DNA of 45,046 nucleotides from positions 1 through 45,046 of IMG/VR virus record IMGVR_UViG_3300032001_000013; one strand, written 5' to 3'. The translations under genes and the position numbers were made by a program. Position 1 is the stretch's first letter. Each line of letters opens with the position of its first letter. This document shows positions 70-41,797 of the stretch, in pieces. The stretch comes from a virus. Taxonomy: Duplodnaviria; Caudoviricetes. The notes beneath the pieces are model-generated. The model did no database searches. It was not told the origin of the DNA and saw nothing but the letters and a program-made list of their open reading frames with translations.

Positions 70-111
70 GACAAGCGAGGGAGGCGGCCCCCGACGTTGA
101 TCGCCTCCCCC

Positions 112-550
112 GCCTGCCGAGCCGGGCATTGCCCACCCGTGCCGATCCGTGCCCTTGCCTGCGCTGCCGCGCGATGCCCCGCCGAGCTGCGCCTTGACGT
201 GCTGAGCGATTCCTGCCCCGACTTGCCGAGCCGTGCGGTGCGATCCGTGCCGACCGAACGGCGCCCAGCCGAGCCTTGGGCTGCCTCTGCCTGCCTCACA
301 ATGGCATGCCTCGCCCCGCCTTGGAACGCCTCGCCATGCTTTTCCGGCCGAGCCGGGCCGGGCTGCGCTAGGCCCTCGAAGCCACGCCTAGCCTTTCCTG
401 CCTCGCCCAGTGCCGCATCGCCGTCCACGCCGTGCAGCGGGGTGCCACGACGGCCGCACCTTGCCTTGCCCTGCATTCCGCGCAGAGCCGAGCTGTCCGG
501 ACGGTGCCGGGCCAAGCCACGCGATCCGATCCCGTGCCGGGCCCTGACGT
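112..550 (-). repeat. GGY-NN pentamer array 1 (about 7 units; putative non-contiguous guide RNA)
   Basis: 5-nt periodic GCC-NN on + strand (GGC-NN on -), units separated by GGCAGG/GGCCGTC-type spacers; promoter-like TATCTT-CC-TTGATA at 563-550 on -; hairpin at about 79-110 downstream. Confidence 0.9.
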
Positions 551-590
551 ATCAAGGAAGATAGCACATCGCAGAGCATGAGGAGGGCCG

Positions 591-3020: not shown

Positions 3021-4040
3021 ATGACCGAGCTTGCCACCGTTGCGAACGGGCAGCTGGCGCCGGCGGCACCGCTGGGCGGCCTGCGTCCCCGCGTTGCCTC
3101 GCGCAAGAGCGACGACTACGTTGCCCAGATCGAGGCCCGCCGGGCGCGCTCGGCTCCGCTGACCCGCGAGGCCAAGGTGCGCAAGATGGCCTTGATCCTC
3201 TCCGACGAGCTGCACGGCTTCCGCCGCCTGGGCGTCGGCATGGTGGGCCCGATCCAGCTGAAGCTGAGGTACCAGGGCATCGTCCGCAACGTGCTCGTCG
3301 AGGACCCGGTGACGCCGGGCACCCCGGTCGAGTACGACGTGTGGGACGACCTGGGCCAGGCCTACATCCTGAGCGGCACCGAGGGCGAGGTCCGGGTCAC
3401 GCCCTTTGAAGGCAAGCGCATCCCGGTGCGGTTCTTCCGCATCGCCAGCCGCCCGGCGATCCGCAAGGAGGACCTGTTCTACCTCCGGATCAACGCGGTC
3501 GAGCAGGCCCAGGACGAGACCAAGCAGGCCATCCTGAAGCAGGAGGACGCCCGCCTGCTGGTTATCCTCCAGGCCGCGGTGACGGACTACGCCACCCGCC
3601 CGGACCACGTGGTCACGCCGAACCACAACATCACCGAGGCCTCGGGCTATCTCACCCCGGGCAGCCTCTACTCGGCTGTCGCGATGACGGACCTGCACGA
3701 GCTGCCGTCCGCCCGGCTCATGATCAACCCGTTCGACTTCCGCGACATGTACCGCTGGGACATCAACCAGACGGGCTGGGCCTTCAAGGACCGCGTGGTC
3801 GCCGGCGAGACGATCACCAGCTTCGGCGAGTTCCAGATCCAGCGTTCCATCATCGTGCCGCAGGCCAAGATCTTCCTGACCCCCGAGCCCAACTTCCTCG
3901 GCGTCTTCCCGGTCCTCTACTCGCTCGACGTCGAGGAGAACCACATGGTCGAGGCCTTCTGGAAGGGCTGGGTGTTCGACGAGATGGTGGCTATGTCCAT
4001 TTTGAATCCAAGGGGAATAGCCACGATCACCAAGAGCTGA
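3021..4040 (+). CDS. Major capsid protein
   Basis: GPIQLKLRYQGIVRNVL, YRWDINQTGWAFKD, YSLDVEEN...KGWVFDE closely resemble Bxz1/cluster C MCP; strong RBS. Confidence 0.93.
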   Translation: MTELATVANGQLAPAAPLGGLRPRVASRKSDDYVAQIEARRARSAPLTREAKVRKMALILSDELHGFRRLGVGMVGPIQLKLRYQGIVRNVLVEDPVTPGTPVEYDVWDDLGQAYILSGTEGEVRVTPFEGKRIPVRFFRIASRPAIRKEDLFYLRINAVEQAQDETKQAILKQEDARLLVILQAAVTDYATRPDHVVTPNHNITEASGYLTPGSLYSAVAMTDLHELPSARLMINPFDFRDMYRWDINQTGWAFKDRVVAGETITSFGEFQIQRSIIVPQAKIFLTPEPNFLGVFPVLYSLDVEENHMVEAFWKGWVFDEMVAMSILNPRGIATITKS

Positions 4041-4344: not shown

Positions 4345-4497
4345 GATTCACCTCCTCACCTCACTCGGCGGGGCGGGCGGCCACGGACGGCATGGCGTAC
4401 GACCTCCTGATCGCGGTACCGCAGGGCGCCCGGGGCTTCGGGACACCCGGGCGTTCGCTTGCCCGGCCAGGGTACCAGTGATTAGGGTTCATTGATT

Positions 4498-9799: not shown

Positions 9800-9852
9800 C
9801 GCCATGTCCGGACAGATTCCCCGTGATCTCCCCGTGACTTGACATGCAGTGC

Positions 9853-9867
9853 TAGGTTTATTGATAT
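9853..9867 (+). promoter_or_regulatory. Phage promoter motif TANNNT-N2-3-TTGAYA (representative copy)
   Basis: Copies at 4483, 5028, 5919, 6674, 7889, 8422, 9853, 11252, 15090, 16881, 24481, 32752, 34492 (+) and 563, 26910, 30033, 37478 (-). Confidence 0.8.
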
Positions 9868-9890
9868 TGACCGACCAAGCGGGAGAACGG

Positions 9891-11249
9891 ATGAGAACCG
9901 AGACGGAGATCGTTGCCGCCATGAGAGCGGCGGCGCAGCCAGGACGGCTGCGCCTGAGCAGGCAGGTCACCGCGCAGCTGCGGGGCCTGACCGATGAGCT
10001 GGCGGCAGCCCGGCCGGCCTCGGCGCAGGAGTACGCGCGGTTCCTGGCCATCGGCCGCCGCGGCATGGTCCTGCCCGAGGCGGAGCTGGCCGGCCGGATC
10101 CGGCATGCCACCATCCTGGTGACCGGCGGGACCGGCTGCATCGGCACTGAGCTGATCCGCCAGCTGGCTGAGCGGCGGTCGGGCCTGGGCTGCCTGGTCA
10201 GCGTCAGCCGCGGCATCACCAGCGGCTACCCGCGTCACCCTGAAGTCAAGTACCGGCATGCCGACATCTGCGATCGCGCTGCCATGAATGAGCTGATGGC
10301 CGAGATCAGGCCCGATCTGGTCTTCCACGTGGCGGGCCAGCGCGACCCGGGCCTGGCCGAGACCGAGGTGCACCGCACCGTGACCACCAACGTGCTCGGC
10401 ACCCGCGCCGTGCTGGTCGCGGCGGTACGGGCCGGCGTCCCCCAGGTGGTGTGCTGCTCGACCGGCAAGGCACTGCGGCCGTACTCCCCTGACGTGTACA
10501 CGGCATCCAAGCGCGCGGCCGAGTGGGTCGCCTCGGGCGTGGCCGCTGCCACCCCCATGCTGGTCTCGGCCAGCCGGTTCACGCACGTGATGGACAACTC
10601 GATCATCTGCCGGAAGCTGTGGCGCTGGGCGGAGGCCGGCCGTGCCATGCGGCTGCACGACCCCGGTATCGCGTTCTACGTCCAGTCGGCCCGGGAGTCC
10701 GCCCAGCTGCTGCTGCTGGCGGTCCTGGAGGCCCGCCGGGGCGAGTTCCGGGTCAACGCCCTGACCGATCTCGGCTGGCCGGTGAGCCTGCTGGACGTCG
10801 CGCTGGGGACGCGGGCGGCGGCAGGCCCGGAGTCGCCGGTCTACTTCAGCGGCTACGACCGCGGGTACGAGGAGACCCCGTTCCCGGGCCTGTACGACCC
10901 GCTGACCGCGGGCGGGGTGAGCCCGCTGCTGAACATGTTCGAGGCCGCCGCGAAGACGGGCTGGGCCGAGGGCCAGGCCGACACGTTCCGGCTGGGCTTC
11001 GCGCCCGACCGGCAGGCCCTCAAGCGGCTGGCCGTGCTCGCCGAGGTCTGCGGCAGCACCACGAACCCGGGGCTTGCCCGGGGCTGCCTCGATGAGCTGT
11101 CCTGGGCGCTGCTGTCCGCGGCCACGCGGGCGGTCCCGCCCGCGCTGCTGGCCCGCTCGGCCAAGATGGCCCGGCAGCAGGAGCCGCTGAGCGACGTGCA
11201 CCGCCGCGTCCTGGAGGTTATCGAGTCAGCGACCGGTGTATTCGGGTAA
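9891..11249 (+). CDS. CapD-like NAD-dependent nucleotide-sugar epimerase/dehydratase (polysaccharide biosynthesis)
   Basis: ILVTGGTGCIG Rossmann motif, VFHVA, NVLGT, STGKA, YTASK. Confidence 0.85.
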   Translation: MRTETEIVAAMRAAAQPGRLRLSRQVTAQLRGLTDELAAARPASAQEYARFLAIGRRGMVLPEAELAGRIRHATILVTGGTGCIGTELIRQLAERRSGLGCLVSVSRGITSGYPRHPEVKYRHADICDRAAMNELMAEIRPDLVFHVAGQRDPGLAETEVHRTVTTNVLGTRAVLVAAVRAGVPQVVCCSTGKALRPYSPDVYTASKRAAEWVASGVAAATPMLVSASRFTHVMDNSIICRKLWRWAEAGRAMRLHDPGIAFYVQSARESAQLLLLAVLEARRGEFRVNALTDLGWPVSLLDVALGTRAAAGPESPVYFSGYDRGYEETPFPGLYDPLTAGGVSPLLNMFEAAAKTGWAEGQADTFRLGFAPDRQALKRLAVLAEVCGSTTNPGLARGCLDELSWALLSAATRAVPPALLARSAKMARQQEPLSDVHRRVLEVIESATGVFG

Positions 11250-11290
11250 GCTAGGTTCATTGATATTCATTCACCCGAGGGGGACTACTC

Positions 11291-12634
11291 ATGACTGCCG
11301 CGCCGGGGCGACCCTGGGCTGAGGGCGAGCCTGCCCACCAGTTCCAGGTACCCGCGTACCAGCCGCCCGCCCATCTCCTGGGCCCGTTCCGCGTTCCCGA
11401 CGACACCAGCACCCAGGTCATGCCCGCCTGGCGGCCCGAGGAGACCGTCACGGCGCCGCTGCCGCTGGGCCAGCCCGAGCCGGTCCCGGCGCCGCGGCGC
11501 AACCGGATCATCGCCCTGGTGCCCGTGCACAACGGGGAAGCGGACCTGGCCCCGGCCATCGAGGCGCTGCTGGCCCAGACCCGCCCGCTGGACGAGATCA
11601 TCATCATCTCCGACAACTCGACAGACGGCACCGTGGCGGTCGCGAGCCGCTACCCGGTGACGGTGATCGAGTCGGCAGGCAACAGGTACCGCAAGTCCGG
11701 CGCGCTGAACCAGGCCTGGCGCAAGTACGCCCAGGACGCCGACTACGTGGTGTGCATCGACGATGACACCCGGCTGCCGCCGTTTGCGGTGGAGCACTTC
11801 GAGGCCGAGATGACCGAGGATCCCGGGGTAGGTGGCATCTCCTGCCAGGTGGTGATGCGGGGCAGCAGCATCCTGAGCCGGATCCAGCGGGCCGAGTTCG
11901 CGCAGAGCACGGTGCTGAGCCGGAACCGGGGCTGGGTCCGGGTCATCTCGGGCACCGGCTGCATCTTCCGCAACGAGGCGCTGCGCGAGGCCGCCCTGCT
12001 CCCGGGCCAGGAGGGCCCGTGGACCTACCGCAGCGTGGTCGAGGACTACCACCTGACCTTCCAGCTGCGCAAGCTGGGCTGGCTGTGCATCATGAGCAAG
12101 GACGTGTGGTGCGACACCGGCAGCATGCCCTCGGTGAAGGCGCTGTGGCACCAGCGGGTCAAGTGGCAGTCCGGCACGATCGGCGACCTGATCAACTTCG
12201 GCTTCAACCGGATGAACTGGCGCGAGTGGATGCAGCAGTTCTACGGCCTGATCTGCGTGGCCTTCTGGATCCTGTGGATCTCGCTGAACGGGACCGCCTG
12301 GGCCCTGGGCGGGCTGCACCCGAACATCTGGTGGGTCATCTTCCCGGCGATCTTCGCGGGGACCGAGTGCTTCTACGCCTGGCACATCCACGGCCGCGAC
12401 TGGAAGGACATGCTGCTGGCCGTCTCCATGGTCAAGATGATGATCTACACCTTCCTGTGCATGGGCTGGAACCTGGCCAGCTGGTGGATCATCCTGCGCG
12501 GCAAGCAGAAGGACCTGTGGGCTGCCCAGTACGTCGCCGACGGGACAGACAAGGTACTAGGGGAGGGAATGAGCGATGCCGGACCTGCCAGCGAAGAGGA
12601 CCGTCGTCCCGCGCCGCAGGCGCTATGCCGTTAG
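11291..12634 (+). CDS. Processive GT2 glycosyltransferase (cellulose/PNAG synthase-like)
   Basis: PVHN, DNSTD, KSGALN, DDD, VED, QRVKW (QxxRW-like) and C-terminal TM helices. Confidence 0.9.
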   Translation: MTAAPGRPWAEGEPAHQFQVPAYQPPAHLLGPFRVPDDTSTQVMPAWRPEETVTAPLPLGQPEPVPAPRRNRIIALVPVHNGEADLAPAIEALLAQTRPLDEIIIISDNSTDGTVAVASRYPVTVIESAGNRYRKSGALNQAWRKYAQDADYVVCIDDDTRLPPFAVEHFEAEMTEDPGVGGISCQVVMRGSSILSRIQRAEFAQSTVLSRNRGWVRVISGTGCIFRNEALREAALLPGQEGPWTYRSVVEDYHLTFQLRKLGWLCIMSKDVWCDTGSMPSVKALWHQRVKWQSGTIGDLINFGFNRMNWREWMQQFYGLICVAFWILWISLNGTAWALGGLHPNIWWVIFPAIFAGTECFYAWHIHGRDWKDMLLAVSMVKMMIYTFLCMGWNLASWWIILRGKQKDLWAAQYVADGTDKVLGEGMSDAGPASEEDRRPAPQALCR

Positions 12635-13697
12635 CGCGGCCCTGGGGACCGTGGCAGCGGCCGTGCTGGGCCTGGCGCTCTGGTCGATGGCCGGCGTGAC
12701 CGCGGCCTACCGCGGGGTGACCCCGGCCGCCGCGGCAGCGGCAGCGCCCGCGCCCCGGCCGCTGGTGATCTACCACGCGCCGTTCGTCAGGTACGAGAGG
12801 GCCAGGGCCGTGCCGGTGCTGGTCTACCACGAGATGAACAACGGCTGCGCGCCCTCGGCGCCGGTCTGCAAGGCGGCCGACCCGGAGACGGTGAGCACCG
12901 CCCAGTTCCGGGCCGAGATGGCCTACATGTTCAGCCGCGGCTACCACACCGTCACCATGGCGCAGTACCAGGCCTGGCTGGGCAACCGCAAGACGAGGCT
13001 GCCGTCCAGGCCGTTCCTGATCACGGCGGACAACGGCATCTGGAGCTTCCTGTCCGGGGCCCAGCCGGTCCTGGCGGGCTACGGCTACACCGCCGTGGCC
13101 GCGGTCGTGACCGGGTTCGCCGACGGGGCTGGCGGGCACTGCGCGCCGCGGATCGGCGGGGTCAGCGTCCAGCCGGGCTGCCCGCGGGACAACGCCGGCT
13201 GGGATGCCACCTGGGCCCAGCTCCGGTCGCTCGACCCGAGGGTGTGGGAGTTCATCCTGGAGGCCGGGCCGTCCGGCCACTACGTCCAGGATTACGACCC
13301 GCACTGCCGGATGTTCGACGCCTGCCTGCTGCCCGGCGAGACCGTGGCGCAGTACCAGGTCCGCCTGGCGGCCGAGCTGGGCGGCGGCGAGACGGCGCTG
13401 GCTGCCCGCCTGGGCAGCCGCGTGAACCCCGGCGGCTGGGTGGTCCCCTACAGCGACCTGGGCTACCCGCGCTGCGCGCAGGGCGACTGCACGCCGCAGG
13501 ACGCCACGATCCCGCAGGGCTACCTGGTGAATTACGCCGATGCTCACTTCCGGGCCGTCTTCGTCGAGGATGCTTCCCGCAATGCCATCGGCCACGAGCG
13601 GTTCCGGTTCGACGTCAACGGCCCGGACACCGAGGCCTCATTCCAGAGCCAGCTGGCGGCTTTCACCGCCGCGGGCGCATTCGACAGGAGCAGGTAA
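12576..13697 (+). CDS. Polysaccharide deacetylase-like secreted/anchored protein
   Basis: VPVLVYHE, GYHTVT, FLITADNG (TFDDG-like); N-terminal TM. Confidence 0.75.
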   Translation: MPDLPAKRTVVPRRRRYAVSAALGTVAAAVLGLALWSMAGVTAAYRGVTPAAAAAAAPAPRPLVIYHAPFVRYERARAVPVLVYHEMNNGCAPSAPVCKAADPETVSTAQFRAEMAYMFSRGYHTVTMAQYQAWLGNRKTRLPSRPFLITADNGIWSFLSGAQPVLAGYGYTAVAAVVTGFADGAGGHCAPRIGGVSVQPGCPRDNAGWDATWAQLRSLDPRVWEFILEAGPSGHYVQDYDPHCRMFDACLLPGETVAQYQVRLAAELGGGETALAARLGSRVNPGGWVVPYSDLGYPRCAQGDCTPQDATIPQGYLVNYADAHFRAVFVEDASRNAIGHERFRFDVNGPDTEASFQSQLAAFTAAGAFDRSR

Positions 13698-15247: not shown

Positions 15248-15502
15248 ATGAGCGCTGAGAGCCCCGGAGAGCCTTTCCAGGGCCTGGGCATCCCCGACAC
15301 GGTGCCGCCGCCCTGGGCCTTCACAGAGCGCTGGCGCGAGGCGATTGCCGGGATCCTGCGGCCGATGGCCGACAAGGGCGTGATCGAGCCCGACTGGGAG
15401 GTGTCAGGCCGGTGGGACGAGGCCACCCGGAGCCATCAGATGGTCATCAGGATCCGGGTGATCATCGCCCCGCCGGATGACCCTAGCCCAGCAGGTAGCT
15501 GA
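15248..15502 (+). CDS. Hypothetical protein
   Basis: RBS AGGAGG. Confidence 0.65.
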   Translation: MSAESPGEPFQGLGIPDTVPPPWAFTERWREAIAGILRPMADKGVIEPDWEVSGRWDEATRSHQMVIRIRVIIAPPDDPSPAGS

Positions 15503-16238
15503 AGACCGGCCCGGCGACGGACACGCGCCCGGCCTCGGCCCGGTTGGCGCGGACCCGGGCCTGGTGCACCGCGCCGATCAGCCTCTCGCACCGCTCGATC
15601 AGCGCGAGCTTGTCCTCGCGGGACAGCGCGCCGGAGAACCGGGTGATCTCCCACACGCCCGTGCGCTTCTCGTCGGGCACGGCCTGGGCCTGGCCGGCCT
15701 GGTACTGGGTCGGCTCGATCAGCACCAGGGACTTCAGCCCCTTCTCGACCCGCAGCCGCTGCTCGGGGTGGCGGCTGCGGAAGGAGCCGTCGTCCTCGTC
15801 CCAGTCCCACAGCTCGGACGGGTCGCGCACCTGGAGGGCCCGGAAGAAGCCCAGGACCTGGCCCAGCTGGTGCTCCAGCGGCAGCAGGTAGGTGACCGGC
15901 ACGTCGCGCAGCAGCGGCACCTGGTCCTCCTCGTCGAGCACGACGTCCGCGGTGGCCGCGGTGTTCGCGTACTCCTTGGCCGCGGACAGGTCCAGGGCAG
16001 GGGTCAGCACCCGGGCCAGCTCGGCCAGGATCTCCGGGGTGCGCTCCTGGAGCACCTCGGTCTTCTCCGGCTGGCTGTGCAGGCCCTCCGGGTCGTGCTG
16101 GTCATGCTTGTAGACCTGGCTGAAGCCGGCGAACAGCTCCTTGCGCTGGACGCGCCTGAGCAGCTCCTCGCGCTGCTTGTCAGCACTCTGGCGGGCCGTC
16201 TTCTCGACGGCGACGACCTCGCCCAGGGTCTGGGTCAT
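15483..16238 (-). CDS. Conserved actinobacterial/phage protein (DUF7873-like)
   Basis: L.EVVAVEK, AN..A.ADV, VPVTYLL.LE.QL, G.W....FSGAL, AV..AR..AN, VF.YL pattern recalled for this family; RBS GAGGAGG. Confidence 0.75.
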   Translation of the reverse strand: MTQTLGEVVAVEKTARQSADKQREELLRRVQRKELFAGFSQVYKHDQHDPEGLHSQPEKTEVLQERTPEILAELARVLTPALDLSAAKEYANTAATADVVLDEEDQVPLLRDVPVTYLLPLEHQLGQVLGFFRALQVRDPSELWDWDEDDGSFRSRHPEQRLRVEKGLKSLVLIEPTQYQAGQAQAVPDEKRTGVWEITRFSGALSREDKLALIERCERLIGAVHQARVRANRAEAGRVSVAGPVFSYLLG

Positions 16239-18607: not shown

Positions 18608-19132
18608 ATGACGATCGACCAGCAGATGATGTACGCCCAGCCGCTGACCACGGTCATCGTGCAGAACATGACCGCCTCGGTGCTGGTGATCGCCAGCGAC
18701 CCGCGGCGCACCCACGAGGTGACCTTCGAGGGCAAGGGGTCGCCCTCGGGCGGCGACTTCCAGCACATGCCGCCGGAGATCGTCCGCACCCCCGCCTTCG
18801 CCCGGCAGCTGTCCCTGGGCACGCTGAAGGTCGTCCAGGGAGAGGATGACCCGGCCGTCAAGGCGGCACTCCAGCATCAGTCCGACGCGTTCTGGAAGCG
18901 CGCCGAGGAGGACCGGGCCGCCGCGCTGTCCACCCTGGACGAGGTGGCCGACAACGATTACGTGGTGTTGCAATGCGTAGGACCGGGCACCAGGCCGGAT
19001 GCCCCGTGCGGGGAGAACATCCCGCGCAAGAACGCCGAGGCGATGGCGAGGCCGCCGCTGTGCGACCGGCATATAGGCCTCACCGACAAGTGCGTCCGCC
19101 GCGGCGACGGGCCCTGGGTCCTGGAGCAGTGA
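18608..19132 (+). CDS. Conserved phage protein with C-terminal Cys/His cluster
   Basis: RBS AGGAGG; C..PG....C....PPLC..H. Confidence 0.85.
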   Translation: MTIDQQMMYAQPLTTVIVQNMTASVLVIASDPRRTHEVTFEGKGSPSGGDFQHMPPEIVRTPAFARQLSLGTLKVVQGEDDPAVKAALQHQSDAFWKRAEEDRAAALSTLDEVADNDYVVLQCVGPGTRPDAPCGENIPRKNAEAMARPPLCDRHIGLTDKCVRRGDGPWVLEQ

Positions 19133-19147
19133 TTACTATGGTTCCTA

Positions 19148-19273
19148 GCCAAGGTGAGGCTAGGCATCGCGTGTCCTGGCACGGATGGGCATGGCGGGGC
19201 CCGGCAGGAGTGGCTCGGCTTGGGGTGGCTCGTCTAGGAGTTGCCCGGCGTGGCTGGGCAGGTACGGCAAGGA
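19148..19273 (+). repeat. GGY-NN pentamer array 2 (2 units)
   Basis: Strict 5-nt register with GGCAGG separators; units match the flanking genes when decoded. Confidence 0.9.
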
Positions 19274-19297
19274 AGTCACGCCAGAGCGGAGTCTGCC

Positions 19298-32029: not shown

Positions 32030-32742
32030 TGCCCCCGTCCGTCGCCACCGTCTCCGGCGAGACCGCTGAGTTCGTCATCAGCGGCGACCCCGACCGGATG
32101 ATCATGCTGGTGCCCAGGCTGAACGGCAACCGGGCCCGGAACCTGGCCAACGCCGCGGTGCGCGAGGCCCGCAGGATCATGCCCAAGCTGACCGGCCGGG
32201 CCGCCCAGCGCCTGGTGCCGGTCTACGGCTACGGGTTCTTCGGCATCCACTGGGCCGACGCGTACGTGTACTTCCAGGAGAAGGGCATCCGGCCGTTCAC
32301 GATGACCCACCTGGCCGGCAAGACGATCCCGATGTGGGTCGACGACCCGACCGGCACCGAGAAGCAGCGCAACCCGAGGGCGCAGACCCGCACCACGATC
32401 TCGGGCAAGCCGCAGGTGCTGATCTTCCGCCGGGCCGCGCAGATCGGGGCGACCAGGACGATCCGGACCAAGGTCGCCGGGCAGTGGGAGGTCAGGACGG
32501 TGCCCGCGTCCTACCCGGGCGCCCCGGGCCGGATCGGCCGACGCGAGGCCGCCATCCCCTGGACGACCGCGGGCCGCCAGGGCGGCCAGATCGCCCAGGC
32601 CAACATCGGCGTCCGCTGGCGCCACCCCGGCCTGGCCCCGCGATTGTTCATGAACCGGGCGATCACCTTGGCCGCTCAGCAGGGCGGCATCCTGCCGACG
32701 CGGATCTACGTCGCTGACAGATTCTGGAGATCGCATTTCTGA
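32029..32742 (+). CDS. Putative neck/tail-completion protein
   Basis: MPKLTG, Q..G..PFTM, WRHPG..PR.FM motifs typical of gp10-like neck proteins. Confidence 0.65.
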   Translation: MPPSVATVSGETAEFVISGDPDRMIMLVPRLNGNRARNLANAAVREARRIMPKLTGRAAQRLVPVYGYGFFGIHWADAYVYFQEKGIRPFTMTHLAGKTIPMWVDDPTGTEKQRNPRAQTRTTISGKPQVLIFRRAAQIGATRTIRTKVAGQWEVRTVPASYPGAPGRIGRREAAIPWTTAGRQGGQIAQANIGVRWRHPGLAPRLFMNRAITLAAQQGGILPTRIYVADRFWRSHF

Positions 32743-32766
32743 TTTTCCTGATAAGGTTCATTGATA

Positions 32767-33770
32767 GGCCTGGCCGGGCCAGGCGAAGCCTTGACAGCGC
32801 GTCAAGGCATCGCGTGGCAGGAAAGGCTAGGCGTGGTGCCGATCGCCCGGCGTCGCTCTGCTAGGCAGTCGAGGCGCAGCCCGGCGCGGATGGCCGGGCC
32901 GGGTAGCGCCAGGCAGAGCAGGGCAGGGCAGGATGGGCCCCGCTCGGATGGCTGGGCATGGCAGCGCAGGAAAGGAATGTCTTGGCCTGGCCAGGCGAGG
33001 CCCGGCGGGGCAGTCATGGCTCGTCTAGGCATTGCGGGCCAGGGCGAGGCGAGGCAGGCGATTGCTCGGCGGGCCGTGGCGCCGCAGGGCAGGTCTAGGC
33101 AGGCTAATGGTTCAGTGAACCATTAAGGCAGCCAAGGCATGCCGGGGCGAGGCTCCGCGGGGCATCGCCGGGTATCGCAAGGCCGTCATCGCGGGGCACC
33201 GCCCGTCCTGGATGGGCATGGCGCCGCGCGGCGCTGCCAGGCAGGATTGGCGAGGCTTGGCCCAGGCATTGCCGGTCGTGGCACCGCCCGGCAAGGCAGG
33301 AGAGTCTGGGCTAGGCGGGGCATCGCTCAGCGCGGCGAGGCACAGTGCCGCGAGGCCGGGCGGGGCTAGGCAGTCCAGGCATCGCTCGTCGCGGCCAGGC
33401 ATGGCCCGGCGAGGCGCAGCGAGGCAGTCCCGGTATCGCTCGGATGGCTTGGCCAGGCAAGGCCAGGCAGGGCCGTCGAGGCGTGGCCTTGCGCCGCCTG
33501 GACCGCAACGCATCGCAAGGCTGGGCAAGGCAGGTGCAGCCTGGCAAGGCAGTGCCTGGCGGCGCAACGCGCAGCCTGGCCAGGCGAGGCAGTCAGGTCG
33601 TGGCGAGCCTTGGCCCGGCAGTGCCCGGCCCGGCAGCGCCCGGCACGGCATGGCAGGAGATGCTAGTCAGGGCCAGGCTCGGCTCGGATCGCGCGGCTCG
33701 GCGCGGCAGGAGCAGCTTGGCATGGCGGGGAGAGGCTGAGCCCGGCTAGCGGGGCAAGGCGCGGCAGGTA
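32767..33770 (+). repeat. GGY-NN pentamer array 3 (about 18 units)
   Basis: Starts right after promoter TAAGGT-TCA-TTGATA (32752); internal palindrome at 33105-33125. Confidence 0.92.
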
Positions 33771-33789
33771 CGGGGCCCCGGGAAGCAGT

Positions 33790-34494
33790 GTGACTACTCC
33801 TCAGCCGTTCGTCCCGGCGTATCCGGCCGGCTTCTTGCGCGTCATCAAGGCCGGCTCGGTCGACGCGCTGAACCAGGCCTTCGCGATCGCCTACCCCGAG
33901 CAGGATGCGGCCGGCGGGATCCAGGCGCCGTACATCAGCATCGACTACCCGGTGAGCCAGGGCGCCTACCCGGGCATCTGGGTGGACTTCGAGGTGGCCA
34001 TGCTGCGCACCGCGGGCATCGACCACATCGAGATGCTGGATGACGGCACGGTGCTGGCCCGCTGGCGGTTCCAGGGCTACGCGGTGTTCACCACCGTGGC
34101 GCTGAACAGCAACGAGTGCGACGGGATCTACGACCAGCTGGTGGCGCTGACCGCGTTCGCCGCTCAGTCCGAGGTGCCCTCGGTCTTCCGCGATGTCATC
34201 GACTCCAACGGCCTGGTGAGCACCACCTGGAGCTACGACACGGTGGAGGCCCGCGGCCAGTCCGCGGCGCCGGGCACGCCCTGGGGCACCACCGAGATCA
34301 TCTACGAGCGCGGCATCGCGCTGAAGGTGATCGGCGAGTTCGTCACCAACCCGGCCTCGGCCGTCTACGAGCTGGTGCCGCTGAGCAAGATCATCATCAC
34401 CGGCCAGATGCAGATCGACGACGTGAACGCCGGCGACCCGTTCATCCTGACCATCCCGCCGGAGACCCCGCCGTTCACCCCGCTTCCCGGCTAA
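33790..34494 (+). CDS. Putative tail terminator protein
   Basis: SIDYP...YPGIWV motif; position before sheath. Confidence 0.65.
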   Translation: MTTPQPFVPAYPAGFLRVIKAGSVDALNQAFAIAYPEQDAAGGIQAPYISIDYPVSQGAYPGIWVDFEVAMLRTAGIDHIEMLDDGTVLARWRFQGYAVFTTVALNSNECDGIYDQLVALTAFAAQSEVPSVFRDVIDSNGLVSTTWSYDTVEARGQSAAPGTPWGTTEIIYERGIALKVIGEFVTNPASAVYELVPLSKIIITGQMQIDDVNAGDPFILTIPPETPPFTPLPG

Positions 34495-34505
34495 GGTTCT
34501 TTGAT

Positions 34506-35324
34506 AGCATGGTGGTCCTGGGCTGGGCGTCGGTGGCACATCACGTCCAGGCCGGGCGTGGCCGTCCAGGCGCGGATAGCCAGGACGGCGCGTCCAGGCG
34601 CTGCCGCGCTCGGCAGTCCTGGTGTCGCGAGGCGGGGCAGTGCGTCGCTGGTCGCGGCAAGGCAAGGCCCGGCTCGGCCGTCGCGGTTAGTCTGCGCGTG
34701 TCGGTGCTGGGCCCGGAGCGCTAGGCTTCGCTGGGCCGTCGGCGCATCGCTATGCGTGGCCCGGCTTGGCGTGGCAAGGCCTCGCATCGCAAGGCAAGGC
34801 CGTCGAGGCTTAGCTGGTCTGGGCACGGGATGCCAGGCACGGCGGGGCGCGGCCGTCCAGGCTGGTCTAGGACATCCCGTCGAGGACTGGCGTGGCCGTC
34901 AAGGCCTGGCGGGTCCGGGCCCGGTACCGCATGGCACAACTCGGCGCGGCCGGAGATGCTGGGCTAGGCGAGGCATCGCGGGGCGCGGCGAGGCTAGGCC
35001 GTCTGCGCGGGGCTCGGCAAGGGTCGCTCCGCTCGGCAGGGCACGGCGAGGCCGGGTTGGCAAGGGTCGCCCGGGTGGCGTTGCATCGCTTGGCCGTCCT
35101 GGTATAGCCCGGCGTCGCATTGCGAAGCGGCGCGGGGCATGGCCTGGCTGTCGAGGCTGAGCTTGGCGCTGCGTCGCTTGGCGCTGCGAGGCTGGGCGCG
35201 GCCGTCCTGGCCCGGCCCGGAGGCGCAACGCGGGTCCAGGCGAGGCAGGGCTAGGCCGTCTAGGCACGTCCCGGCGGGTCGGGGCTGAGCTAGTCGCCGC
35301 CTGGCAAGGTGTGGTGAGGCAGGA
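34506..35324 (+). repeat. GGY-NN pentamer array 4 (about 15 units)
   Basis: Follows promoter TAAGGT-TCT-TTGATA (34492); GGCCGTC separators. Confidence 0.92.
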
Positions 35325-35377
35325 GGTTCTCCGGCCCGGGAAGACGTGAGGATGTCTTCCCGGGAGGAGAGCCCACG

Positions 35378-36931
35378 GTGACGGTTCCGACTTTTTCGTC
35401 TTATCAGCCTCCTGGCGTCTACGTCTCCGACGTCACCGGGCCCATCGTCACCACGACCGGGGTCTTCCCGCAGATCCTGACGCTGGTCGGGCCGGGGCTC
35501 GGCTACCGCACCGCGGTCCAGACCTTCCAGATCTTCGCGGGCACGGGCGCCATCCTGAACTTCACCGGGGTCTTCACCACCGCCCAGGCCGGGCCCCCGG
35601 CGATCGCCGCGCCCGTGATGACGGTCACCGGCTCCAGCACCATCCTGGCCCAGGGCACCGACTACAGCTTCACCGTGACCCCGGACCCCTCGGGCAACGC
35701 CGCGCTGGCGGTCACCTCGGTCTTCCGGGTCGGCACCTCGACCAGCATCGCCGACGGCGCCCAGGTGACGATCACCTACAACTACGCCGACGTCACGTAC
35801 TACCAGCCGCAGCTGTTCACCAACTTCCCCGCGGTCACCAACGCCTACGGCCAGCCCCTGGTGGCCGCCGCGCCGACCCAGGCCAACGTCAGCCAGGTGG
35901 CCAACCCGCTGAGCTACGCCGCGCAGACCGCATTCGGCGCCGGGGCCAACCAGGTCATCGCGTGCGCCTGCAACCCGGCGGACGGCACCCTGGAGCAGCA
36001 GCTGCTCGCCGCGTACACCAAGCTGGCTGCCGTCTACGACTCGACCCTGGTGGTCCCGGTCTTCCCCGACTACCTGGGCGGCTTCGCGGGCGGCTCCGGC
36101 GTGTCCCAGTACGCCCTGACGCTGGCCACCGACCTGGACGGCGCGATGCAGGGCGCCAGCGTCAACGGCTACCCTCGGATCGGCTTCTTCGGGCTGCCGG
36201 TGGACTACTCCGAGTCGGCGCTGCCGGTGCCGAGCTTCTCCGCCTCGATCGCCGACAAGCGGCTGGTGCTGGCCTACCCCAAGGCCCTCCAGGCCTACAA
36301 CCCGCTGACCCGGCAGACGTTCAGCGCCTCGGGCTGCTACCTGGCGGTCGCGCTGGCCGCGGTGCTGTCGGCGCTGCCGGTGAACACCGGGCTGACCGGC
36401 CAGGCGGTGCCCGGCTTCGCGGGGCTGACCGCGGCCGAGCTTCAGGCGATGACCCCGGCGTTCATGAACAGCCTGGCCCAGGCCGGGACCACGGTGGTCT
36501 ACCAGAGCCGCAACGGCGGGCTGACCTGCCGGCATGGCCTGACCACCAACATGAGCGCGCTGAACACCCGGGAGATCTCACTGGTCCGCCAGGCCGATGC
36601 CCTGCTGGTGTCCCTCCAGGCCGGGATGGAGAACTCCGGGCTGATCGGCACGCCGATCACCGCGAACACGGTGGCCACGGTGCAGGGCGCGATCGTCTCG
36701 ATCCTCCAGCAGGACATCGCCCAGGGCATCATCGCCAGCTACACGAACCTGGTGGTCGCCCAGCAGCAGTACCCGGGCGGCGACCCGACGGTGATCACCG
36801 CGACCTTCTCCTATGTCCCGAGCGTCCCGCTGAACTACATCGAGGTCACGTTCAGCATCGACCTCAGTGCTGGCCTGGTGTCCCAGCAGTCACAGCAGAA
36901 CGCGGCAGCTCCCACCGTCTCCGTGACCTGA
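35378..36931 (+). CDS. Contractile tail sheath protein
   Basis: Y..PGVYV N-terminus; RHGLTT, REISLVR..D, P..PLNYI.V.F C-terminus. Confidence 0.92.
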   Translation: MTVPTFSSYQPPGVYVSDVTGPIVTTTGVFPQILTLVGPGLGYRTAVQTFQIFAGTGAILNFTGVFTTAQAGPPAIAAPVMTVTGSSTILAQGTDYSFTVTPDPSGNAALAVTSVFRVGTSTSIADGAQVTITYNYADVTYYQPQLFTNFPAVTNAYGQPLVAAAPTQANVSQVANPLSYAAQTAFGAGANQVIACACNPADGTLEQQLLAAYTKLAAVYDSTLVVPVFPDYLGGFAGGSGVSQYALTLATDLDGAMQGASVNGYPRIGFFGLPVDYSESALPVPSFSASIADKRLVLAYPKALQAYNPLTRQTFSASGCYLAVALAAVLSALPVNTGLTGQAVPGFAGLTAAELQAMTPAFMNSLAQAGTTVVYQSRNGGLTCRHGLTTNMSALNTREISLVRQADALLVSLQAGMENSGLIGTPITANTVATVQGAIVSILQQDIAQGIIASYTNLVVAQQQYPGGDPTVITATFSYVPSVPLNYIEVTFSIDLSAGLVSQQSQQNAAAPTVSVT

Positions 36932-36933
36932 TT

Positions 36934-37458
36934 GCCTGCCCTACCCTGCACAGCTAAGCGCTCCAAGCCAAGACGAGCGCAGACGGCCATGCCCTGCCAA
37001 GCGTTCCGTGCCCGGCCTCGCCTTGACGGCCATGCCCAGCTCCGCGAGCCCGCGCCTAGCCAGGCCTCTCCGGCCGAGCGCTCCACGCCAAGCCCTGCCA
37101 AGCACGGCCTAGTCGTGCCATGCCGCTCCGGCCTCGCCACGCTCAGCGACGCCAGTCCTCGCCGAGCCAAGCGACTCCTGCCGAGCCGAGCGCGGACATC
37201 CCGGGCCGCGCCAATCCCGGCCAGGCCGCGACTGCCCGGCCCTGCCTAGCCAGGACTAGCCGCCCTGGCCCCGCGGTGCGTTTCCGGCCCCGCCAAGCCC
37301 CGCCGTGCCTAGCCACGCGACGCCCAGCAATGCGCTGACGGCCGTGCCGGGCACAGCGGCCCATGCCGGTCCAAGCGCAGCAACACCTGGACGGCCTCGC
37401 CTCAGCGTGCCCTGGCAAGCCATCTAAGCCAGGCCCGGATGTGCGGCGCCAAGACTGC
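36934..37458 (-). repeat. GGY-NN pentamer array 5 (about 10 units)
   Basis: GCC-NN register on +; promoter TAGAAT-CA-TTGACA at 37478-37465 on -. Confidence 0.92.
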
Positions 37459-37531
37459 TCTGGCTGTCAATGATTCTAGTGCATCTTCGGCAGCCCCGGG
37501 AAGAAGCGACGGATAGACCCGGGAGGCTGCG

Positions 37532-41258: not shown

Positions 41259-41261
41259 TCT

Positions 41262-41665
41262 GCCTGCCTTGCCCTGCCACGCCTATCTATGCTGCTCCGA
41301 GCCCTTGCCTGCCTTGCCCCGCCTTGCCGTGCCAGGCTTCGCCGTCCGAGCCGCTCCTGCCTAGCCTCGCCATACTGCGCCTGTCCTCGCTATGCTGCGA
41401 CTCGCCGCGCCTCGCCAGGACTGCCCTGCCGCACCGTGCCTCGCCCAGCTGTGATCGCCCTGCCCAGCAGCGCCTTGACTGCCTTGCCCGGCATTGCCCA
41501 GCGGCCCTTGCCGGGACAGGCCCGGACATGCCAGGACTGCCTCGCCTCGCCCCGCCCTGCCCAGCCAAGACTGGCCATGCCGTCCCTTGACGGCCGCGCC
41601 CTGCTGAGCCTTGCGGAGCCGGGCCCCGCCTACCCGGGCCCTGCCGTGCCTTCGTCTCCTGCCTG
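41262..41665 (-). repeat. GGY-NN pentamer array 6 (about 7 units)
   Basis: GCC-NN register on + with GACTGCC separators; downstream of - gene 41808..42347. Confidence 0.88.
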
Positions 41666-41797
41666 GCCGCTGCCGGGCAGCGGCATCGCGAGCCAGCGCT
41701 TCCTGTCCGGCTTGCCGTGGCACTGGCTGCACCCGCAGTGGGTCTCATGCGTGCCCGGGGCCGAGCAGTGCGGCCCGCAGTCCGGTGTGCTGCCCAT
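41630..41797 (-). CDS. Possible small Cys/His-rich protein, 55 aa
   Basis: MGSTPDCGPHC...HCGCSQCHG; runs into array 6. Confidence 0.4.
   Translation of the reverse strand: MGSTPDCGPHCSAPGTHETHCGCSQCHGKPDRKRWLAMPLPGSGQAGDEGTAGPG

Follow-up and report, generated by a model that had tools for sequence, protein, structure and literature searches.

Staggered VIPR guide arrays in a phage genome fragment match conserved motifs of bacterial defense genes

Introduction

VIPR systems, as described by Yoon et al. (10.64898/2026.04.26.720920), use guides of GGY/NN pentamers in approximately 9 to 16 repeats, which skip one target nucleotide at a time, mostly at the wobble base (fig. S10). Their targets lie on both strands, binding is to double-stranded DNA (dsDNA), silencing works whichever strand is targeted, and some arrays are staggered, with units overlapping by 1 nt (fig. 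S18). As targets, the authors predict satellites, prophages, other VIPR loci, and viruses (types III and V); the text of that preprint names no host defense genes. An R-loop triplex on dsDNA is described in the available part of a structural preprint (10.64898/2026.04.26.720927), and neither preprint, as far as its available text extends, explains how guides are acquired. Here, we analyze VIPR-type arrays in IMG/VR record IMGVR_UViG_3300032001_000013, a single soil-phage record of 45,046 bases (referred to in its entirety as the window), with emphasis on two arrays located between positions 32767 and 35326.

Three other systems are close in kind. The accessible text of Lopez et al. (10.64898/2026.10.15.759431) describes a SUSP1 VIPR directed against F5 satellites, together with solo vrRNAs. 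As in the window, a SUSP1 guide lies within coding sequence on catalytic residues and skips the wobble bases, so that escape needs an amino acid change; the targets given in that text are a satellite recombinase, REP decoys, vipr genes, and vrRNAs, and host immune genes are not among them. Cracr arrays (Liu et al., 10.1101/2024.10.29.618823) are likewise phage guide arrays that silence bacterial immune genes transcriptionally. According to the portion of that paper at hand, however, Cracr hijacks host Cas, pairs contiguously, and acts on cas genes and on toxin genes linked to clustered regularly interspaced short palindromic repeats (CRISPR), whereas the effector in our case would be the phage's own Vipr, the code is gapped, and many unrelated defense families are matched. 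The CRISPR-Cas system of ICP1, which acts against PLE, is also a phage-encoded RNA-guided system directed at an anti-phage element, but it is described in the available excerpt (PMC11656645) as a nuclease-active type I-F system with spacer acquisition, whose target is a satellite element and not conserved defense-gene motifs. A paper on archaeal elements found no VIPR targets, to judge from the part of it that was accessible. Known phage anti-defense mostly takes the form of one protein per defense system, and the RNA-based cases in these partly available sources either borrow host Cas (Cracr) or attack satellites (ICP1). VIPR guides against host defense genes were not reported in the accessible text of the literature searched, a scope that excluded subscription journals and VIPR data tables S2 to S4.

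Relative to the loci of Yoon et al., the window shares the GGY/NN pentamer guides, the 1-nt skip (here at codon position 3), targets on both strands, the staggered arrays with 1-nt overlaps, and the phage-borne location; a gene for a Vipr of the RAMP fold is present in a close relative. The layout differs, with ~60 units distributed over six arrays between virion genes. The long direct repeats and contiguous spacers of CRISPR or Cracr mini-arrays were not seen; the arrays repeat every 5 nt, and without gaps the targets do not match. The either-strand rule, the wobble skip, and dsDNA recognition have previously been published for VIPR and are not new. Guides of the window match eight gene families. 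Host anti-phage genes are the targets with the strongest support, a point that a preliminary description of the same DNA had overlooked. The system and its rule are thus known, and immune-gene targets are probably a new job for it.

Results

Architecture and code of the arrays. Six noncoding tracts with a 5-nt period are interspersed among the virion genes: A0 (100..560, minus strand), A1 (19143..19275, plus strand), A2 (32767..33767, plus strand), A3 (34506..35326, plus strand), A4 (36932..37465, minus strand), and A5 (41260..41716, minus strand). GGY-NN-GGY pairs are concentrated on one strand in A2 (54 on the plus strand versus 6 on the minus strand) and A3 (41 versus 1). These two arrays parse into 33 staggered units (18 in A2 and 15 in A3) of 7 to 14 NN steps. 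A unit begins with G(T/G)(C/A), proceeds in xGC-NN steps, and ends with GGC(A/C)G, the last G of which also opens the following unit throughout both arrays. Because scaffolds of 2 to 4 nt were permitted by the parser and merged units were divided by hand, a few unit decodings may be wrong; several units contain 4-nt slips. Across all arrays, which base opens a scaffold depends on the NN before it (e.g., AT is followed by CGC), with a mutual information of 0.132 compared with 0.030 for the null. The idea that this base is a relic of the skipped base found no support, since by inspection the non-G bases of the guide matching short Argonaute (pAgo) genes disagree with the target codons.

A leader, TAAGGTTC-TTGAT (32752..32767, plus strand), precedes A2 and is likely its phage promoter; the same motif precedes A3 (34492..34507, plus strand). 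In the form TA(A/G)GGTTC-TTGAT, it stands 5' of A2, A3, and the phage open reading frames (ORFs) at 4492 and 11291, all on the same strand, which supports taking the GGY strand as the RNA. That strand had been called promoter-defined in the preliminary description; the shared leader bears out the choice of strand, although a consensus scan found no sigma-70 sites. Leader motifs (TA(A/G)GGTTC-TTGAT and TGCTATCTTCCTT) recur 5' of ORFs and arrays at 4483, 11252, 32752, 34492, and 566 (minus strand), and TGCTATCTTCCTT is also present in a relative, G002; they are likely phage promoters. A palindrome, AATGGTTCAGTGAACCATT, breaks up A2 at 33106..33125 and has a second copy after A0 at ~50 to 69; it is possibly an operator or processing site.

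Among the supported units that match coding genes, 3 are sense and 5 are antisense, and the base skipped is always codon position 3. When the skip was varied, the guides matching HsdM and DEAH motifs (see below) gave 8 and 10 matches, respectively, with a skip of 1 and none with skips of 0, 2, or 3. The preliminary description had proposed guides in both orientations relative to their targets, a skipped third codon position, and dsDNA recognition, and the tabulated strands and phases agree with it on each count. Since both polarities occur with GGY as the guide strand, simple antisense pairing to RNA does not account for them and dsDNA recognition is the supported reading, in keeping with the dsDNA binding published for SUSP1 VIPR (10.64898/2026.04.26.720920).

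Guides matching defense genes. No close host genome was found among the 251 genomes compared, and the guide searches were therefore run on general Actinomycetes samples. Dedicated searches covered 16 of the 33 units of A2 and A3; in addition, local DNA was scanned with the full set of 33. One genome (G046) is counted in some of the genome tallies below; no claim depends on it.

The strongest match is that of unit A2.12a (33475..33533, plus strand), which is sense to the short-Argonaute PIWI motif EVLALTKMNWN. All 22 of its read bases are exact at 55 GTDB loci, against an expectation of 0.001 to 0.15. Every locus is in frame as (E/D)VLALTK(M/I)NWN, ~50 residues from the stop codon, with position 3 skipped. 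PADLOC assigned pAgo in 10 of 10 loci scanned, and all 6 partner genes scanned in actinobacterial loci were of the REase-APAZ type. Many of the 55 loci are from related Streptomyces and are therefore not independent events. The exact pattern has a single match in IMG/VR.

Unit A3.1 (34564..34616, plus strand) is antisense to the TIR_2 motif DRAWAEWIAW. Among 56 genomes of one order, 19 contained matches at 19/20 (31 in total), with none in the control and ~0.1 expected; the frame was antisense in 15 of 15 fetched loci, and TIR_2 was found in 9 of 9 scanned. This motif was first noticed in control DNA, and the exact pattern does not occur in IMG/VR. Unit A2.1 (32820..32868, plus strand) is antisense to the type I HsdM motif YNTGI(A/S)TY, on which fell all 8 of its matches at 15/18 or better (best, 17/18) in 56 islands picked for HsdM only. 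Control DNA (0.8 Mb) contained no match, and none was found among 131 genomes at up to 1 mismatch. Six exact metagenome matches of this unit are unrelated and at chance level.

Two units point to ATP-binding loops. Unit A2.13 (33592..33656, plus strand) is antisense to Walker A motifs and agrees most closely with those of NB-ARC/STAND NTPases. At up to 3 mismatches, it gave 13 matches in 251 genomes and none in the control, and 12 of the 13 lie on Walker A loops, namely those of 6 NB-ARC, 2 further STAND-like, 2 ABC, and 2 RsgA proteins (one RsgA assigned by likeness). Its best match (22/24) is on an EAD1-NB-ARC protein, and there is no exact match in metagenomes. Several of the matched proteins are BTAD regulators, which makes a link of this unit to defense tentative. 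Unit A2.8 (33244..33299, plus strand), antisense to the Walker A motif of HerA/DUF87 ATPases (GMTRMGKSN), matches two such homologues at 19/20 and 18/20; in total, 4 matches were found in 56 genomes versus 2 in the control. One HerA/DUF87 target (L344:4211-6358) lies upstream of an unannotated ORF and a D12 methyltransferase gene, beside a type I-E cas3.

Unit A3.2 (34616..34680, plus strand) is sense to the CBASS phospholipase motif LVDGGVWANNP and matches, at 21/24, a phospholipase gene adjoining a CD-NTase gene in 1 of 56 genomes, with none in the control. Its second match falls within no plausible gene, the exact pattern is absent from IMG/VR, and its core was not found in 5 further genomes. 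Unit A3.10a (35096..35150, plus strand) is more ambiguous. It is sense to LIPVIDGG in ThiF/E1 genes and gave 11 matches at 18/20 among 201 genomes and none in the control. The sense frame reads best in every case, but ThiF genes account for no more than 3 of the 11 (JAB and E1-E2 models also fit one of them); the others are thiolase-like, radical-SAM-like, membrane, or other genes.

The preliminary description had attached target labels to guides without naming units, and the pairing of labels with units is ours. Its sense pAgo, antisense P-loop, and antisense TIR labels correspond well to units 33475, 33592, and 34564, and the antisense sheath label agrees with unit 35258, described below. 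For ThiF, the sense orientation holds in all matches and the gene family in a minority of them. Unit A2.7 (33185..33244, plus strand) may be sense to the activation loop of a Ser/Thr kinase; it gave one weak match (19/22) but none in 5 genomes. The NTase-helix label found no backing, as its candidate unit 33533 matched in 0 of 56 genomes versus 6 matches in the control; the NodB candidate, unit 33709, instead matched PurU in the sense frame (3 matches, 19/22). The SNF2 and SF1 labels were not assignable to any unit within 32767 to 35324.

Further units in A3 were searched. Unit 34738 matched in 0 of 151 genomes, and unit 34952, a second TIR-like reading, in 0 of 5. The single matches of units 34898 and 34506 were set aside, because their frame is not that of the gene most likely to be real there. 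Unit 34680 is antisense, at 20/22, to an unannotated gene of 1,471 amino acids (L343:2328-6740), which adjoins an RmrA-like gene and has no Pfam or PADLOC match; it is a candidate new defense gene.

Matches to phage genes and guides in other arrays. Unit A3.12 (35258..35326, plus strand) is antisense to the 5' end of tail-sheath genes. Its imperfect target in the window's own sheath gene (35386..35421, minus strand, within 35378-36931) matches at 20/24, a score reached by 0 of 60 shuffles, and two relatives match equally well; the exact 22-base sheath pattern is absent from IMG/VR. The first unit of A1 (19143) matches the gene just upstream (18950-18984) at 18/24, and 19/24 in relative G003. 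The preliminary description had listed a sense guide for "18953"; the match is there (1 of 60 shuffles), although the unit lies outside 32767 to 35324. When all guides were searched against the window, 3 of 61 scored so high that no more than 1 of 60 shuffles reached the same value; chance may explain the one at 33299 (20/28). Both guides that resemble genes of their own genome lie within ~200 nt of the matched site (35258-35421 and 18950-19207), a closeness that hints at local origin or autoregulation.

In A0, one guide is antisense to SF2 DEAH motifs, best on HsdR (up to 20/22, with none in 0.8 Mb of control DNA at the thresholds used), and another matches the neck gene of related phages at 17/20. 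In all, three guides of the window match virion-cluster genes of related phages. A target was assigned to none of the units of A4 or A5. Guides of two relatives (L004 and L005) are spelled differently but still decode to the DEAH motif, with 9 matches each and at most 1 in shuffles. In G002, one guide matches two Gabija GajB genes at 15/16, and another matches a short-Argonaute segment at just 16/20, mostly in related Streptomyces loci. Orthologous and duplicated units differ by NN changes that keep the motif. This divergence and the short distance between guides and their own-genome matches are two hints at how guides are acquired. When aligned with positions 32308-35000, one relative is ~85% alike in the flanking genes but shows little likeness over most of the arrays, which fits fast guide turnover.

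Vipr in related phages. Arrays are present in 4 of 34 related records, and vipr genes were found in relatives G002, G021, and G026. G002, whose major capsid protein is 99% identical to that of the window, encodes in one locus a G-loop protein (45967-46959), a small ORF of ~160 amino acids with no Pfam match, and a long array of the same architecture. The small ORF, a possible accessory vap gene, is placed between vipr and the array and is absent from the window. The protein matches the solved SUSP1 Vipr (36pp, E 0.0055), and the best fold matches of its model (pLDDT, 91.6) are Csm3/Cas7 RAMPs. Some 40 kb separate this gene from that of the capsid, in the direction that our fragment does not cover. 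Since complete relatives are 147 to 166 kb long, the fragment amounts to approximately a quarter of a genome of ~160 kb. Two complete relatives, G026 (L142-L149) and G021 (L150-L157), encode a shorter Vipr that is ~23% identical to that of G002 and carry individually promoted guides with hairpin tails. Because both the Vipr and the guide format differ, VIPR entered this phage group at least twice.

Discussion

Taken together, the matches make it probable that these staggered arrays are aimed, on either strand, at motifs of defense genes and of virion genes of related phages, and that a Vipr encoded outside the fragment, which likely binds dsDNA, silences them. They suggest that turning off host immunity is the likely use of the guides. 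The broader notion of a programmable anti-immunity weapon, with ~60 guides of which many address invariant motifs (short Argonaute, TIR, type I restriction-modification, CBASS, HerA, Gabija, and STAND), is to our minds evenly poised between true and false. In the proposed pathway, A2 and A3 would be transcribed from the shared leader, and the transcript would be cut at the GGC(A/C)G junctions into units of ~45 to 75 nt, which would load the phage's own Vipr. Vipr would then block transcription inside defense genes and inside virion genes of rival phages, lowering host immunity. The steps between, that is, a filament on GGY, an R-loop triplex on dsDNA, and silencing from either strand with no protospacer-adjacent motif, are borrowed from the published VIPR work. 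A guide reads only codon positions 1 and 2 of near-invariant motifs and would therefore serve against an entire defense family across host strains. Such a choice of motif fits the logic reported for the SUSP1 satellite recombinase.

Several points weigh against this proposal. The main doubt is timing, since silencing leaves in place the defense protein made before infection. No ORF with the Vipr G-loop was found within the 45-kb fragment, and every guide match falls in a genome other than that of the true host. Many of the 16 searched units were picked because they looked motif-like; 8 were supported, 2 gave single matches, and 6 were negative or off-label, and ~23 of the 33 units have no target. 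Global tests were weak: in a best-hit test of all window guides, islands did not differ significantly from the control (7/68 versus 5/68); a convergence test flagged 3/66 versus 1/66, one of the three (pAgo) by construction; and the same test on G002 guides gave 2/121 versus 1/121. Some matches are housekeeping or regulatory genes (PurU, thiolase, radical SAM, ABC, RsgA, and BTAD regulators), and the scanned TIR_2 and NB-ARC targets fit no PADLOC model except for one effector domain. The matched defense genes may also belong to rival mobile elements.

This last point leads to an explanation that we think rather unlikely but that has substance: ordinary VIPR warfare between elements, with guides aimed at related phages and at rival prophages, integrative elements, and plasmids that carry defense genes. 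Defense genes frequently ride on mobile elements, the published natural targets of VIPR are satellites and prophages, and the three guides on virion-cluster genes of related phages would be expected. However, the guides fall on motifs of defense proteins, whereas integrases or lysogeny regulators are hit in the published cases, and the pAgo site occurs 55 times in cellular genomes versus once in IMG/VR, where the exact TIR pattern is lacking altogether. The arrays might instead be orphan or decaying libraries, with no working Vipr or with matches too imperfect or too late to alter infection. The missing vipr, the 4-nt slips, and the majority of units without a target suit this idea, as do the orphan vrRNAs on vipr-null phages described in the accessible text of Lopez et al. 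(10.64898/2026.10.15.759431). We nevertheless consider it unlikely, because the window is only about one-fourth of the genome and G002 keeps its vipr on the side absent here, and because one guide is perfect (22/22) and the meaning of motifs is retained across diverged relatives.

A role chiefly in tuning the phage's own late genes, or as decoys, with host matches as by-products, appears very improbable. It would account for the fact that both significant in-window matches (sheath and 18950) lie within ~200 nt of their own guides, but these matches (83% and 75%) are no better than those in relatives, and by-products cannot yield 22/22 at 55 Argonaute loci. Finally, it is hardly credible that the two polarities arise from simple antisense RNA or from arrays transcribed on both strands. 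Although the late operon could read through the minus-strand A4, the GGY strand of A2 and A3, their leader, and the flanking genes are all on the plus strand; gapped pairing of two bases in three requires a protein scaffold; and dsDNA binding is published, along with a loss of silencing when GGY is changed.

If guides directed at host immunity are confirmed, VIPR would gain a new role as a phage-owned RNA-guided silencer of many immune families, and its wobble-blind code would leave the host no escape by synonymous change. The targets would show which defenses matter in soil actinobacteria. VIPR arrays would also become a discovery tool, as guides without a target may mark new defense genes (e.g., the 1,471-amino-acid gene matched by unit 34680).

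Other features of the fragment

In addition to the major capsid protein gene (3021-4040), the tail sheath gene, and adjoining virion genes, the window contains a virion-cluster gene (phrog_2748; 33790..34494, plus strand) between A2 and A3. The nearest named relatives of the capsid protein are those of large Mycobacterium and Gordonia phages (55 to 60% identity), and we take the fragment to belong to a Bxz1-like group of actinophages. Much nearer relatives are soil records in IMG/VR. One Logan contig shows 0 differences over the whole array stretch; this contig may itself come from the source assembly. The homologue of one phage gene that carries an organism name is from Streptosporangiaceae (61% identity), which gives a hint of the host. 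Genes for an epimerase and a GT2 glycosyltransferase, together with a deacetylase-like ORF with no Pfam match (9849-13697), resemble a surface-polysaccharide module, and the sole organism-named homologue of the epimerase is from Streptosporangiaceae. The fragment also encodes dual-specificity phosphatase-like (955-1401), endonuclease VII-like (1690-2241), and DUF7873 (15483-16238) proteins.

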